A DNA stretch of 5,741 nucleotides, taken from Candidatus Wukongarchaeum yapensis (GTDB lineage: Archaea > Asgardarchaeota > Wukongarchaeia > Wukongarchaeales > Wukongarchaeaceae). The notes under the pieces are model-generated. The model had not been told where the DNA came from and searched no databases. It worked only from the letters and a program-made list of their open reading frames with translations. Of this stretch, positions 1-5,708 are shown piece by piece. Made by a program: the position numbers and the translations under genes. The first letter of the stretch is position 1, and every line of letters begins with the position of its first letter. The stretch is taken from contig JAEOSI010000153.1 of assembly GCA_016840425.1 (NCBI GenBank), positions 1 to 5,741 on the forward strand, in the 5' to 3' direction.

Positions 1-578
1 TCTTGTATTTTCAACGCTTTTTGATAATGTTCTAAGGCTTCCCGAAACCTACCCCAAGCATAATACACTTCCCCGATGTTGTTAAGGGTTGTACCTTCTC
101 CTGCCCTGTCTCCTATCTCCTGGCGTATTTTAAGAGATTTTTGATGATATTCTAAGGCTTCCTGATACCTACCCAAAGCACGATACACTAACCCGATGTT
201 GTTAAGGGTTGTACCTTCTCCTGCCCTGTCTCCTATCTCTTCAAATATTTTAAGAGATTTTTGATAATGTTCTAAGGCTTCCTGATACCTGCCCCAAACA
301 CGATATACTAATCCTATGTTGTTAATGCTCGCGGCTTCTCCTTCCCTGCTTCCTATCTCCTCAGATATTTTAAGAGATTTTTGATAATGTTCTAAGGCTT
401 CTTGAAACCTGCCCAAAGCACGATACACTAACCCGATGTTGTTAAGTATGGCGCTAGCATCATCTTTGCTCTCAATTTTAAGAAAAATCTCAACAGATTT
501 TAACCAGAGTTTTATCGCAGTATCAAAATCATAAACATTTAAGGCCTTTTGACCTGCTGCATATAGATCCATTGCTTC
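1..578 (-). repeat. Intragenic tandem repeat with 120-bp (40-aa) period: degenerate unit R0 459-578, R1 339-458, R2 219-338, R3 99-218, partial R4 <1-98
   Basis: Direct alignment at period 120 gives 103/120 identity for 1-120 vs 121-240 and 98/120 for 121-240 vs 241-360. There is a 48-bp exact match between 72-119 and 192-239. No indels occur and the frame is preserved. Confidence 0.97.
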
Positions 579-590
579 CTCATAAGACAC
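1..590 (-). CDS. Tetratricopeptide-repeat protein with 40-aa TPR-like units; 5' part only, 3' end beyond window position 1
   Basis: Hand translation of the minus strand gives an open frame of 196 codons from GTG (588-590) to the window edge, with an in-frame upstream TAA at 606-608. An SD-like GGGAGTG (598-604) lies 7 nt before the GTG; an alternative ATG is at 570-572. Protein: (M)SYEEAMDLYAAGQKALNVYDFDTAIKLWLKSVEIFLKIESKDD ASAILNNIGLVYRALGRFQEALEHYQKSLKISEEIGSREG EAASINNIGLVYRVWGRYQEALEHYQKSLKIFEEIGDRAG EGTTLNNIGLVYRALGRYQEALEYHQKSLKIRQEIGDRAG EGTTLNNIGEVYYAWGRFREALEHYQKALKIQ... It matches the TPR consensus G8/Y11/G15/Y17/A20/Y24/A27. No signal peptide is visible. Confidence 0.93.
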   Translation of the reverse strand, partial: MSYEEAMDLYAAGQKALNVYDFDTAIKLWLKSVEIFLKIESKDDASAILNNIGLVYRALGRFQEALEHYQKSLKISEEIGSREGEAASINNIGLVYRVWGRYQEALEHYQKSLKIFEEIGDRAGEGTTLNNIGLVYRALGRYQEALEYHQKSLKIRQEIGDRAGEGTTLNNIGEVYYAWGRFREALEHYQKALKIQ

Positions 591-597
591 GCTTAAA

Positions 598-604
598 CAC
601 TCCC
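598..604 (-). promoter_or_regulatory. Putative ribosome-binding site for the TPR gene
   Basis: GGGAGTG on the minus strand, 7 nt upstream of GTG 590. This is the same spacing as the tatA SD. Confidence 0.55.
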
Positions 605-650
605 ATTAGTGAAGGAAAAGACTTTATGAAAGACGGGTTGACAAAAAGTT

Positions 651-670
651 CTTTAAAAAATTACTAATCT
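651..670 (-). promoter_or_regulatory. Possible archaeal TATA-like element upstream of the TPR gene (could instead be a U-tract terminator of folD)
   Basis: The minus strand reads agattagtaaTTTTTTAAAG about 60-70 nt upstream of GTG 590. The match is weak and the region is AT-rich. Confidence 0.2.
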
Positions 671-789
671 TTCATTTCTTATTTTGAAATCCTTCCTTTT
701 TTACTTTTGGTTTATTTCATGTTTTTCTTTGTTTTCGGTTCATGTTGATTAATTTATAAAGTAGGTTTTGAAAATGTTTTGCTGATTTT

Positions 790-1635
790 TTAGGGAGTGA
801 TGTTTTTTGCCGCTATGAGGGTATTTTCTAGGAGCATTGCTACGGTCATCGGGCCTACTCCGCCAGGTACTGGAGTGATGTATGATGCTTTGTTTTTTAC
901 GTTTTCAAAATCTACGTCGCCGTAGAGTTTTCCTTCTATCCTGTTTATGCCCACATCTATTACGACTGCATTTTCTTTGATCATCTCTTTTGTAACTGTG
1001 AAGGAGGGACGTCTTCCCACAGCGGTTACGAGAATGTCTGCTTTTTTTGTTTCTTCTTCTAAGTTTTTTGTTTTTGAGTGACAGGTTGTTACCGTTGCGT
1101 CAGCGTTTATCATCATAGCGTATAAGGGGCGACCTACGAGCTTACTCCGGTTTATTATTACCACGTTTTTTCCAGCGACGCCTATTTGATAGTGGTCAAG
1201 GAGATTCATAATGCCTTTTGGCGTACAGGGAACAAGGAGAGAAGGGTTACCTTGGAAAAGCTTTCCGAGATTTACGGGGTGCAAGCCATCTACGTCTTTT
1301 TCGGGGGATATTTTTTCGATGACGATGTTTTCACTTATTTGATTTGGGAGGGGCATTTGTACTAGGATACCGTGAGTGTTTTCGTCATTGTTTAGCTTGT
1401 CTATGAGGTTTAACAACTCTTCTTGTTTCGTTTCTTCGGGAAGTCTATACGTTTTTGAGAGTATGCCTACTTCACTGCAAGCTCTTTCTTTTATTCCAAC
1501 ATAAATTTTAGAACCAGGATCTTCGCCTACGAGTACCGCGGCTAAACATGGTTTTTTCTCCATCTTTTCAATCTCTTCTTTAAAAGAAAGCCTGATCTTT
1601 TCCGCCAGGCCTCTACCGTCCAAAATTTCCGCCAT
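790..1635 (-). CDS. folD: Bifunctional 5,10-methylenetetrahydrofolate dehydrogenase/cyclohydrolase (FolD), 281 aa
   Basis: Family motifs are present in order: YxxxK (YVGIK), GILVQMPLP, KDVDGLHP, PCTPKG, NRSKLVGRP (GRSxxVGxP-type NAD(P) site), CHS, ADIL, VIDVGINR, GDVDF and TPVPGGVGPMTVAMLLENT. SD-like GGGGA at 1642-1646. Confidence 0.97.
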   Translation of the reverse strand: MAEILDGRGLAEKIRLSFKEEIEKMEKKPCLAAVLVGEDPGSKIYVGIKERACSEVGILSKTYRLPEETKQEELLNLIDKLNNDENTHGILVQMPLPNQISENIVIEKISPEKDVDGLHPVNLGKLFQGNPSLLVPCTPKGIMNLLDHYQIGVAGKNVVIINRSKLVGRPLYAMMINADATVTTCHSKTKNLEEETKKADILVTAVGRRPSFTVTKEMIKENAVVIDVGINRIEGKLYGDVDFENVKNKASYITPVPGGVGPMTVAMLLENTLIAAKNITP

Positions 1636-1654
1636 AACAATTCCCCAACGCTTT

Positions 1655-2389
1655 TTATAAGAGGGATTTTAACGGTTTCCCTGCCTTCTCCCACTCCTCC
1701 TCCTGAAAAACTACGTATTTTTCCTGCCTCTTATCCCATTCTTTTTCCCACTCAACCCACTCTTCCCCAGTTAAAACCATCTTTACCTTCCTATCACCAG
1801 GCTCCGGAGGCTCAACTATTTTATCAGCGATCATTTGAACAGCCCTAGGGAACATCCTATGCTCATAAACCAAAATTCTATCAGCGAGAGTTTCAGCCGT
1901 ATCAGCCCACTTTACCCCCACAACCTCTTGAACTATTATCGGTCCAACATCCACACCCTCCGTAACATAATGGATCGTGCAACCAGAGAATCTCACGCCA
2001 TACTTCCACGCTTGCTCCTGTGCATTAAGACCCGGAAAAGCAGGAAGAATAGAAGGATGAATGTTTATAGACCTCCATTTATAATGCCTAATAAAAAGAG
2101 GAGTCAGTATCCGGTCAAACCCTGCTAAAACCACCAATTCAACACCATATTTCTCCATCTCGTCAATGGCTTTTCTCTCAAAATCTTCACGATTAGCCTT
2201 ATCATAAGGAAAAACAACACTGTCTACCCCATAATCCTTTGCAAGCTCCAAAACCTTAGCCTTTTCATTATTACTTACCACAATCCTTAAGTCAACATCT
2301 TTTAACACTTTAAGCCTTACATGATCCGCTATAGCCTTAAAATTCGAGCCACGCCCTGACGCTAAAAAACCTACATTCATTTTCCCCAC
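1655..2389 (-). CDS. purN: Phosphoribosylglycinamide (GAR) formyltransferase, PurN family, 244 aa with C-terminal extension
   Basis: Phosphate-binding loop ASGRGSN, LAGFDRIL, catalytic N109-I-H111 in NIHPSILP, GCTIHYV, D147 in VDVGPII, and E176-H. There is no N-terminal ACT domain, so it is not PurU. GTG start at 2389 with GAGG 7 nt upstream; an alternative ATG is at 2380. The gene lies 19 bp upstream of folD, which supplies 10-formyl-THF. Confidence 0.88.
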   Translation of the reverse strand: MGKMNVGFLASGRGSNFKAIADHVRLKVLKDVDLRIVVSNNEKAKVLELAKDYGVDSVVFPYDKANREDFERKAIDEMEKYGVELVVLAGFDRILTPLFIRHYKWRSINIHPSILPAFPGLNAQEQAWKYGVRFSGCTIHYVTEGVDVGPIIVQEVVGVKWADTAETLADRILVYEHRMFPRAVQMIADKIVEPPEPGDRKVKMVLTGEEWVEWEKEWDKRQEKYVVFQEEEWEKAGKPLKSLL

Positions 2390-2410
2390 AATCCTTCCTC
2401 TAAATCCCTA

Positions 2411-2433
2411 CTATAATAGAATTTTTATCGATT
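2411..2433 (-). promoter_or_regulatory. Possible internal BRE/TATA promoter for purN-folD
   Basis: The minus strand reads cgataaaaattc-TATTATAG, ending 21 nt before GTG 2389. This is the right distance for a near-leaderless archaeal transcript, but the consensus match is imperfect. Confidence 0.3.
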
Positions 2434-3333
2434 TTAGGTCGCGGTCACTCCTTTTTCTCTTTTTCCTCGCGATTTCACAGCGTGCAACGCTTCTTTTACA
2501 AGAATTTTTTTAGCTAATTCTTTTGTTTTCCTCAAGCTTTCTTTCCTTTCTATACGTTTCGCGATTGAAATAGTTGCGTAATATTCGATTATCATGGGTA
2601 CTAATAATATCATCATAGTTATCCCCGAAGGATCTGGAGTCACCACCGCAGTCACTACCGCGAGAACAAAAATAAACTCACGAGACCGCTTTCTTAAATC
2701 ATCCGTAGTGAAAACACCCGCCAACACAAGCATCGTCAAAAAAACAGGAAAAGTAAAAGCCAACCCTATCCCTATAACCGCTATAAAAAGAAAAGTCAGA
2801 AAACTATCCAAAGTGTAAATGGGCATAACATCAGCATAATAAACCAAATCGATAAGAACACCATAAGTTATAGGCAAAATCACAACAAAAGCAATAAAAG
2901 CACCCGCATAAAAAAGCAAACAAAAAGAAACTACAAACCACTTAAAATACGCCTTCTCCTCCTCAAACAAAGCCCTCTCAACAAAAAGATAAATCTCCCT
3001 CGCAATAAAAGGAACAACAGTCAAAATACCGAAAATAAGACTCACCGCAACATAAGCCCAAAAAATCGCCGAAAAATCCGTCACATAAAGATCCAACCTA
3101 TGAGACAACATATAACCCTTTAACTCTTTAATCAAACGAACACACATAGGCTCATAATCTTTAAGAGACAGCCTACCATCAAGAAAACTCCCCGGCGCAA
3201 AAGCCCAAAAAGCACTAGCTAAAAGAATAGCCGCAAAAATCCTCCTAAGACGCCTCACAAGCTCCTGTAAATGGCTTACCAACTCCTCCTCATAATCACC
3301 AGGCGGGATCCCAAAACCATCACTACTCTTCAA
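2434..3333 (-). CDS. tatC: Twin-arginine translocase subunit TatC, 299 aa, divergent
   Basis: HLQELVRRL (HLxELRxRL-like), F-V-E-R-A-L-F-E-E-E (FxxPxLxxxE-like), FxFP and TPDP motifs; about six hydrophobic segments; adjacent to tatA. TTG start at 3333 has an in-frame TAG at 3337-3339 just upstream and GGTGGGG at 3344-3350. Confidence 0.93.
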   Translation of the reverse strand: MKSSDGFGIPPGDYEEELVSHLQELVRRLRRIFAAILLASAFWAFAPGSFLDGRLSLKDYEPMCVRLIKELKGYMLSHRLDLYVTDFSAIFWAYVAVSLIFGILTVVPFIAREIYLFVERALFEEEKAYFKWFVVSFCLLFYAGAFIAFVVILPITYGVLIDLVYYADVMPIYTLDSFLTFLFIAVIGIGLAFTFPVFLTMLVLAGVFTTDDLRKRSREFIFVLAVVTAVVTPDPSGITMMILLVPMIIEYYATISIAKRIERKESLRKTKELAKKILVKEALHAVKSRGKREKGVTAT

Positions 3334-3914: not shown

Positions 3915-5708
3915 TTATACAATTTCTTCGACGGCGAACTGGGAAGATTTTAAAGCTTCAATGTCCTTCAACACTTGGTTGTACTTATCTTCGAACTCTT
4001 GTTCCTGGAACCATTTCAGGTTAGCTATTACGTCAAAAGCATCCAGTTCTAACATATCTTTGACTAAAATACCCGCATCGAGCAATTCCTTCATCTTCTC
4101 ATACAGCAAAATAATAGCCCTTAACATCTTATACTGTTTATCCATGGAGCAGAAACTGTCATCCGAATAAGCGCTCTGCTGTAAATAATCTTCCCGGATC
4201 ATCCTAGCAGCTTCAAGGATAACCCTTTCAGATTCAGGTAAAGCATCAGGACCAACCAGTTGAACGATTTCCATAAGCTCTTTTTCCTTCTGCAACAACG
4301 ACATAGCCTCAGTAACCAAATCCGGAAATTCTGGAGAAACATTCTCCCTATACCAATCTCTTAGGCTACCTCCATAAAGAGTATATGATGTCAACCAGTC
4401 AATCGCTGGGAAGTGTCTTTGCTCCGCTAATCTCTTGCTTAACGCCCAAAATACCCGGACTACTCGAAGAGTGTTTTGGGTTACAGGTTCTGAGAAGTCG
4501 CCTCCAGGCGGGCTAACTGCGCCAACCGCGGAAACAGAACCTATACGTTCCTCTGAGCCTATACACACCACTCTGCCCGTCCTTTCGTAAAAGGCCGCCA
4601 ATCTGGAGCCTAAATACGCTGGATAGCCCTCCTCCCCGGGCATTTCTTCTAATCGTCCTGAAATCTCTCGAAGAGCTTCGGCCCACCGTGAAGTTGAGTC
4701 AGCCATTAGGGCGACATCATAGCCCATATCTCTGTAGTATTCTGCTATTGTGACGCCTGTGTAGATGGAGGCTTCTCGAGCGGCTACGGGCATGTTTGAG
4801 GTGTTGGCTATTAGGGAGCATCTTTCCATTAAAGCTTTGCCTGTGTATGGGTCGATTAGCTTGGGGAATTCTTCAAGAACTTCAGTCATTTCGTTTCCAC
4901 GTTCACCGCAGCCGATGTAGACGATTACTTTTGCATCAGACCATTTTGCGAGCTGATGTTGGGACACGGTCTTTCCTGTACCAAAGCCGCCGGGTATTGC
5001 GCCGGTTCCTCCTTTGGCGATGGGGAAGAAGGTGTCGTAAATTCTTTGACCTGTTAGTAGAGGTACTTCTGAGCCGAGTTTTCTCTTATAGGGTCTGTAT
5101 TCTCGGACTGGCCAATCTTGTTTTAATTGAATCGTATGTTCTGCACCGCTGGGGGTTTTTATAACCGCGATCTCCTCATCAATAGTATATTCTCCGTCAC
5201 CTGCAAGGGAGGTAAGCTCTCCTGAAAGTCTTGGAGGCACCATTACTCTATTCTCAATAACTAAAGACTCTTTCACTATTCCTAAAATGTCTCCTCCGAC
5301 AAGCTTGTCTCCTTCTTTAGCTTTTGGAACGAAATGCCACTTTTTATCATGGTTAAGGGCTGTAGCTATAACACCACGTGCAATGAAATCCCCGGTCTTT
5401 TCTTTAATTTCTGGTAGAGGCCTAGCAATTCCATCGTAAATCGATGTAATTAAACCTGGACCCAGCTCGATGCTTAAGGGAGCACCTGTAGCTGTCACAG
5501 GCTCTCCAGGTACTAATCCAGCTGTCTCCTCATAACACTGTGAGATAATGTGATCTCCGAATACACGGATTACTTCTCCTATTAGTCCTTCTTTGCCGAT
5601 TCTGGTGACTTCATACATTTTTGTTCCGAACATTTTTTTTGCTTCAACCACGGGACCGCTGATCCTCGTGATTTCGCCTATGATTCCGCCCTTTTTTTCT
5701 GAAGACAT
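3915..5708 (-). CDS. atpA: A/V-type ATP synthase catalytic subunit A, 597 aa, intein-free
   Basis: Walker [20 protein letters not shown], Walker B region [50 protein letters not shown] and [12 protein letters not shown]. The A-subunit-specific non-homologous region is present. SD-like GGGGT at 5717-5721, 8 nt upstream. The symbol follows archaeal usage (also ntpA). Confidence 0.97.

Follow-up and report, generated by a model that had tools for sequence, protein, structure and literature searches.

Does a short TPR array in the archaeon Candidatus Wukongarchaeum yapensis carry the traces of a system that shuffles sequence between repeat units? The question arises at one end of a 5741-base stretch of DNA (the window), where three two-state sites within 10 bp of each other combine differently in each of four consecutive units. 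The sequence-only reading of this stretch had concluded that no simple duplication tree can produce such a pattern, and had proposed that very short-tract gene conversion, or reshuffling from a larger pool of units, generates a combinatorial receptor repertoire. If true, this would represent an archaeal receptor-diversification mechanism, and it would be relevant to how immune-type sensors arose in the lineage nearest to eukaryotes. The evidence assembled here reduces the idea to known tandem-repeat behavior. We put a probability of roughly 0.7 on the three-site clash being ordinary homoplasy in an array that evolves by ordinary tandem-repeat events, without a dedicated shuffling system.

The Repeats Belong to a TPR-CHAT Gene Split over Two Contigs

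The window corresponds to one entire contig (C158); the assembly comprises 2.16 Mb in 277 contigs and has 38% G+C. All of its genes lie on the minus strand, in the order atpA, tatA, tatC, purN, folD, followed by a frame that matches TPR profiles (TPR_12, E=8e-56; TPR_1, E=2e-39) and contains an array with a period of 120, 3.6 copies and 86% matches in TRF. The array comprises four 40-residue units, here numbered W01 to W04 in the direction of translation (Table 1).

Table 1. Features of the 5741-base window, with the state of the three flagged sites in each repeat unit
Feature	Positions	Strand	Basis or content
A-type ATPase subunit A (atpA)	5708-3915	-	ORF + Pfam
tatA	3734-3399	-	ORF + Pfam
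tatC	3333-2434	-	ORF + Pfam
purN	2389-1655	-	ORF + Pfam
folD	1635-790	-	ORF + Pfam
AT-rich spacer, folD to TPR-CHAT gene	591-789	-	presumed promoter site, inferred
TPR-CHAT gene, 5' part, 196 codons, GTG start at 590-588	3-590	-	ORF; TPR_12 E=8e-56; exits contig end
N-terminal capping region, aa 1-36, unrepeated	483-590	-	aligns with N-terminus of C108 paralogue
TPR unit W01, first half cap-like	363-482	-	415/411/406 = TTG, GGC, TTT; differs from A01 only at 411 and 402
TPR unit W02	243-362	-	295/291/286 = TGG, GGC, TAT; 3 differences from A02
TPR unit W03, hybrid of A03 (5' end) and A05 (rest)	123-242	-	175/171/166 = TTG, GGT, TAT
TPR unit W04, counterpart of A06	3-122	-	55/51/46 = TGG, GGT, TTT; 5 differences from A06

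The window contig stops inside the repeat array, and the rest of the gene is located on a second contig (C217, bases 1-3274). C217 starts at codon 15 of the gene, and its bases 1-138 are identical to window positions 549-412. Only two CHAT genes are present in the genome. The identical 138 bases and the presence of just two CHAT genes together indicate that a single locus is split between C158 and C217, and the two contigs can now be joined. In the C217 frame, 14 units (A01 to A14) are followed by a helical linker and then by a CHAT domain (PF12770; E=3.2e-39, profile positions 6-288 of 289). CHAT is the sole Pfam match in the 511 residues that follow the C217 array, and the window part matches TPR families only. 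Where the His and Cys of a caspase-like protease are expected, the C217 translation shows the motifs HFAGHG and LSACETG, which may contain the catalytic pair. By its domain matches, the window gene is a TPR-CHAT protein, with the array as the predicted sensor or scaffold part in front of a predicted caspase-like CHAT protease.

The nearest named relatives are CHAT-domain proteins from Helarchaeota MAGs, with ~40% identity. Together with a 63% match of the ATPase A subunit to a Promethearchaeati MAG (see below), these relatives point to a genome that is probably Asgard. A search for relatives using the CHAT part found no close orthologue, and the same-genus representative has only a 27-aa fragment at a contig end; the window's own array was therefore compared across species through L011 (see below). 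A search of metagenome contigs with the N-terminal cap found no independent assembly of the locus and one distant relative with 46% identity.

We compared the gene to the TPR-CHAT family, which includes Csx29 from type III-E CRISPR systems. The N-terminal TPR array, the helical linker and the C-terminal CHAT domain are common to both, and judged by this architecture the gene is a member of a widespread, mostly uncharacterized family. Unlike Csx29 in Craspase, it has no CRISPR or Cas7-11 neighbor: its flank in the window consists of housekeeping genes (folD, purN, tatC, tatA, atpA), no direct-repeat array of the CRISPR type was found within the window, and C217 contains no giant ORF, nor any ORF >600 aa, besides the TPR-CHAT gene itself. 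Csx29 probably also has far fewer units, which are less alike, than the 14 and 19 units of the two genes in this genome.

Three Sites Conflict Among Four Window Units

The letters at the three flagged sites are those given by the sequence-only reading. On the plus strand, positions 46/166/286/406 read A,T,T,A, positions 51/171/291/411 read A,A,G,G, and positions 55/175/295/415 read C,A,C,A, which yields AAC, TAA, TGC and AGA for the units. All three pairs of sites show all four combinations and fail the four-gamete test, as had been claimed. In the coding strand, the sites correspond to unit nt 77 (TTT/TAT, Phe/Tyr), nt 72 (GGT/GGC, silent) and nt 68 (TGG/TTG, Trp/Leu), and units W01 to W04 read L-GGC-F, W-GGC-Y, L-GGT-Y and W-GGT-F. 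The larger-scale mosaic that had been described is present as well: positions 181-206 are identical to 421-446, with 301-326 differing at 4 positions.

We next asked how much weight this clash can bear. The four units contain 48 variable sites, 10 of which are parsimony-informative. Seven of the 10, including the silent one, support the partition (W01,W02|W03,W04), with nt 1 and nt 77 supporting (W01,W04|W02,W03) and nt 68 alone supporting (W01,W03|W02,W04). A single tree with two or three homoplasies thus suffices to describe the window pattern, in units that are 10-30% divergent. We then ran a tree-only simulation of unit nt 40-120, assuming one quartet tree and drawing per-site alphabets and rates from the 29 remaining internal units of the genome. 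At the observed divergence, 39% of runs gave at least two conflicting sites and 18% gave all three partitions; in 1.5% of runs the three partitions lay within 10 nt, a nominally low figure that is post hoc. Among random quadruples drawn from the 33 real units of the genome, 21% hold a mutually incompatible triple within 10 nt and 91% hold an incompatible pair; the consecutive quadruples of C217 and of its paralogue on contig C108 hold no such triple (0/27). Taken together, the three-site clash exceeds chance only weakly.

The spacing of the sites is informative in itself. A clash across sites 4-9 nt apart points to recurrent mutation, as recombination predicts that near sites are compatible and far sites are not. 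An alternative reading holds that very short-tract conversion between units, or with the paralogue, made the mosaic and varies a TPR sensor surface in the manner of fungal NLR repeats. We regard this as unlikely for the flagged sites, which are 4-5 nt apart and could be parted only by tracts of <5 nt. As outlined below, other observations speak for this alternative. With so few repeat units, short and constrained as they are, a four-gamete test has little power.

Window and C217 Represent Two Haplotypes of One Locus

We compared the two versions of the array. Following the identical 138 nt, the repeats in the window and in C217 differ by ~2.5% SNPs (12 positions) and by a 240-bp indel. W01, W02 and W04 are the counterparts of A01, A02 and A06, with 2, 3 and 5 differences, respectively. 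W03 differs from A03 at unit nt 15, 57, 81, 94, 97 and 111, and from A05 at nt 3, 12, 57 and 113; it is A03-like at nt 3 and 12, and A05-like at nt 15, 81, 94, 97 and 111. Since W03 is a hybrid of A03 and A05, the window form lacks exactly two units (240 bp).

The silent site is one of the positions at which the two versions disagree: at window position 411, W01 has GGC and A01 has GGT. If the A01 state is used instead, the silent site is reduced to a singleton and there is no longer a three-way clash; the clash between the Leu/Trp and Tyr/Phe sites stays. It had been argued that, with one site being silent, protein-level convergence alone is an unlikely cause. The silent site, however, sides with the majority tree and varies between strains. 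The W01 states (GGC, CAA) are common to B01, the first unit of the paralogue, and the A01 states (GGT, CAG) are common to the internal A units. The two bases are located 9 nt apart, and the difference could represent either a short conversion tract over the silent site or two substitutions. Two nearby bases that both match other units are a point in favor of the conversion reading.

A different concern is that the end of the window contig is chimeric, between strains or between units, and that the four units were never present in one molecule. We consider this very unlikely, even though several observations fit it: the contig ends inside a repeat, the two contigs disagree at 12 repeat positions and by 240 bp but are identical in their non-repeat overlap, and the longer order of C217 is backed by an independent MAG (L011, see below). 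Within each unit, however, the three sites span no more than 10 nt. A combination of this size is shorter than any assembly k-mer, so that it must have been read from real molecules and cannot be an assembly chimera. In addition, the window repeat region does not form a path of long exact matches through C217. More generally, contig ends within repeats need checking against the rest of the assembly.

Metagenome data bear on the same question. We used 20 listed runs from 13 studies, each with at least part of the stretch, from marine and other sediments, mangrove, marsh and seawater. All of them take the form of Logan contigs; over the array these are unitigs of 50-150 nt, and linkage is readable up to ~150 nt per molecule. 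Unitigs from four studies were placed on window positions 1-1000; the listed pieces of runs X1, X2 and X4 barely cover the non-repeat part (443-1000), a gap that carries no weight as evidence. Segments matched with zero differences are 376-432/441 in W01 (unitigs from two studies), 256-401 over W02 (X1 and X2), 210-274 across the W02/W03 junction (X4), and 23-101 in W04 (X3). The three-site segments of W01, W02 and W04 are hence reproduced exactly, and the W03 sites are covered by unitigs with one other letter. Both junctions, W02/W03 and W03/W04, are also reproduced exactly, in runs from different studies. The covered three-site haplotypes and the two junctions speak against a chimeric contig end.

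At positions 57, 228, 255, 308 and 333, the letters of the window and of C217 both occur in the metagenomes, fixed in different combinations between runs. X1 and X2 show the C217 state at 57, 228 and 255 and the window state at 308 and 333, and X3 shows the reverse for 228/255 versus 308/333. That X1 and X2 have only C217-type states at 57, 228 and 255 would also be expected of a chimeric window. Both haplotypes are nevertheless real population variants, and further combinations exist; across sediment metagenomes, the locus varies in its number of units and in how its SNPs are combined. SNPs fixed in different combinations by sample, and the existence of unit-number variants, are also what conversion and unequal exchange between units would produce. 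Of the read-level evidence for population mosaics that the sequence-only reading had hoped for, SNP variants and exact junctions could be obtained, and mosaics of the whole array are beyond what unitigs of 50-150 nt resolve.

Orthologous Arrays Keep Their Unit Order and Toggle at the Flagged Sites

Arrays from other assemblies allowed us to follow individual units. An independent MAG contig (L011, GCA_030587555.2) carries A03 to A14 in the same order, with 0-4 differences per unit, where different units within one array differ at 8-60 positions. As the L011 order is that of C217, unit order is stable, and the 14-unit form has been seen twice. A more distant genome (L012, GCA_976602455.1) contains an orthologue of the C108 paralogue at 2390-6066, which is 5.5% diverged outside the array. 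Two single units are missing from this orthologue, which has hybrid units at B02/B03 and B17/B18. Unit-number changes at these loci come in 120- or 240-bp steps. The remaining orthologous units of L012 and C108 show 1-7 differences each, 61 in all. Units have kept their positional orthology at 1-5% divergence, which argues against the conversion reading.

Each of the three flagged sites flips once between L012 and C108: B04 at nt 68 (TGG to TTG), B01 at nt 72 and B14 at nt 77. The comparison shows directly that the flagged sites toggle on short time scales. For the new state in B04, other units match the flanks for only 6-9 nt. Since no potential donor matches beyond 9 nt, the Trp-to-Leu flip is most simply explained as a point mutation, and it stands against conversion as the source of the window pattern.

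The same 61 differences contain three clusters, each with three changes within 4 nt, where ~0.15 would be expected by chance (P about 1e-4). They are located in B09 and B12 at nt 106-109 (TCTT/GCGC) and in B10 at nt 18-20, and each reproduces the haplotype of other units with 19-63 nt of identical flank. These 3-nt patches with matching flanks support the conversion reading. They are good evidence for sporadic short-patch gene conversion between units, with tracts of 3 to ~60 nt, and provide a few clear examples of this process in an Asgard genome. The proposal of conversion or reshuffling was hence right in that exchange between units is real, as seen in the three patches, in the unit-number variants and in the SNP combinations, but the flagged sites on which it was built are poor evidence for exchange.

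Two further features of L012 were observed. Its orthologue carries a 7-bp frameshifting deletion in unit B06 and was called as two ORFs (204 aa and 1021 aa); this could reflect a pseudogene, a programmed shift or an assembly error. Directly upstream, L012:1-2001 encodes part of another large, unrelated TPR protein (697+ aa, ~42-residue units), with no counterpart beside the C108 copy.

A Larger Unit Pool Deviates from a Tree

The larger pool of units that had been invoked does exist, with 14 units in the C217 gene and 19 in the paralogue. The latter gene is located on C108 (7303-11235, minus strand, ~1306 aa; units B01 to B19), and its CHAT part is 77% identical to that of C217. Unit-like DNA was found on only two other contigs of the genome, C217 and C108. 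Template copies outside coding sequence had been suggested as a thing to look for; our genome search for similar DNA detected no non-coding unit copies, with matches only inside the two TPR-CHAT genes. The 120-bp units are 71-93% identical in DNA, and their mean amino-acid identity is 70% in the C217 array and 65% in the C108 array, with single pairs reaching 92.5%.

We analyzed all units together with those of the paralogue using recombination tests of the kind that the sequence-only reading had recommended, and the outcome agrees with its expectation. The pooled units are not tree-like, with 56-69% of informative site pairs being incompatible. PHI gives significant values both for nucleotides (internal units, p <= 0.0005) and for codons treated as characters (p = 0.0003-0.015), and a Sawyer test in which codon blocks were permuted is likewise significant. 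When PHI is restricted to third codon positions, significance is lost (p = 0.08 and 0.4), and part of the local signal may thus represent coupling between neighboring residues rather than conversion tracts. When restricted to the four window units, the Sawyer test is inflated, because the first half of W01 is capping sequence and no true repeat. Another test, asking whether the differences between haplotypes or orthologues fall on sites for which other units show both states, was significant against an all-mutation null and not against a synonymous-only null; conversion and shared constraint are inseparable in this test, and we did not rely on it.

The significant PHI and Sawyer tests count for conversion and against homoplasy, and conversion could accordingly have contributed to the Leu/Trp and Tyr/Phe pattern; the third-position result weighs on the other side. 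We nevertheless infer that point mutation, not micro-conversion, made the pattern at these two sites in the window. In the scenario that we favor, ordinary homoplasy, the two amino-acid sites would accept mainly two residues, with each site toggling by a single base change, and the silent GGY wobble base fits the majority tree of the four units and differs between co-occurring haplotypes of the locus. In the background, unequal recombination removes or adds whole units, the window form lacking two via the A03/A05 hybrid, and short patches, from a few bases up to a few tens, are occasionally converted between units.

The Flagged Residues Lie Outside the Hypervariable Positions

We aligned the units to consensus TPR structures (8bu0, 9qhb, 1na0) using HMMER, and they align column by column. 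As in CTPR (PDB 1na0, 8bu0), where NLG is found at positions 6-8 and Q14-G15-D16-Y17 further on, the units here have NIG and L/W-G-R-Y/F. The flagged Leu/Trp maps to Q14 of the consensus, the Gly to G15, which forms the turn between helices A and B, and the Tyr/Phe to Y17. The units differ from the 34-residue CTPR in having 40 residues, with an inter-repeat loop that is 6 residues longer; the natural 40-residue TPRs of LGN/Pins and kinesin light chain are a close comparison.

Among the 29 internal units, the Leu/Trp position is W in 21, L in 7 and F in 1, the Gly position is G in 28 and D in 1, and the Tyr/Phe position is Y in 23, F in 5 and G in 1. With 2-3 states each, their entropies are 1.0, 0.22 and 0.87 bits, respectively. 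Hypervariable positions (entropy >= 2 bits) are unit aa 7, 11, 18, 21, 22 and 40, and the flagged residues are not among them, contrary to what would be expected if conversion varied a sensor surface at these sites. The variable positions are grouped in helix A, where unit aa 18, 21 and 22 presumably occupy positions 9, 12 and 13, on the TPR concave face.

Between the two B orthologues (C108 and L012), dN/dS is 0.25 for the whole array and 0.17 for the CHAT part, and the array value is a further point against conversion as a diversifying force. In the same comparison, the TPR array has a dS of only 0.076, against 0.173 for the linker and CHAT part. This lower array dS might reflect homogenization by conversion, or constraint on DNA or RNA.

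The notion of a combinatorial receptor repertoire finds no support in these data: unit order is conserved, the array dN/dS is 0.25, and neither a reverse transcriptase nor non-coding unit copies were found in the 92%-complete genome. We infer that no dedicated diversification mechanism acts on the array. Targeting of bacterial sensor proteins by diversity-generating retroelements is known (PMC10907252), and such an element, or another form of templated hypermutation, could in principle target this array as well. We give this possibility practically no weight. The 92%-complete genome has no RVT_1 match and no non-coding template copy, and the sense-strand changes (T/G, T/C, A/T) are not adenine-specific, which together exclude a process of this type as far as the assembly allows. 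Moreover, the variation is spread over all units.

Comparison to Known Repeat Systems

We compared the array to the TPR, ANK and WD repeats of fungal NLRs (Paoletti 2007; Dyrka 2014, PMC4986451), which provide the precedent for the conversion reading. Both show repeat-number polymorphism and exchange between units, and in both the variable positions are gathered in helix A on a fixed scaffold (PMC4986451). In contrast to fungal NLRs, the gene has no NOD, NACHT or NB-ARC domain in Pfam, its whole-array dN/dS is 0.25 (two orthologues), and unit order is stable between strains. The highly conserved repeats of fungal NLRs are defined by >85% amino-acid identity between units over >=100 aa (PMC4986451), and the 65-70% found here is well outside this range, which again argues against the conversion reading. 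It is conceivable that Asgard TPR-CHAT arrays are fast-evolving sensors, in which loss and gain of units and patch conversion between units and paralogues renew binding surfaces. We consider this quite unlikely; if true, such arrays would be an archaeal counterpart of the fungal NLR repeat regime, with several haplotypes coexisting in sediments.

The concerted evolution of tandem repeats by unequal crossing-over and gene conversion (for example Persi, Wolf and Koonin 2016, PMC5120217) resembles our findings in the losses by multiples of 120 bp with hybrid junctions, in the donor-matching patches and in units that are not tree-like. As a point of difference, homogenization is weak here, with orthologous units (0-7 differences) being far closer than paralogous ones (8-60).

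Neighboring Genes in the Window

A 22-nt tandem duplication (2 copies, 81% matches) is found at 666-709, in the spacer that precedes the TPR-CHAT start. In the PurN homologue (1655-2389, minus strand), Formyl_trans_N spans residues 4-184 and is followed by a C-terminal extension of ~55 residues, which is rich in Glu, Trp and Lys and has no Pfam match. The ATPase A subunit (3915-5708, minus strand) has its best species-representative match, with 65% identity, on a contig whose label, 'uncultured Desulfobacteraceae bacterium', probably reflects mis-binning of archaeal DNA. The second match, with 63% identity, is from a Promethearchaeati (Asgard) MAG.
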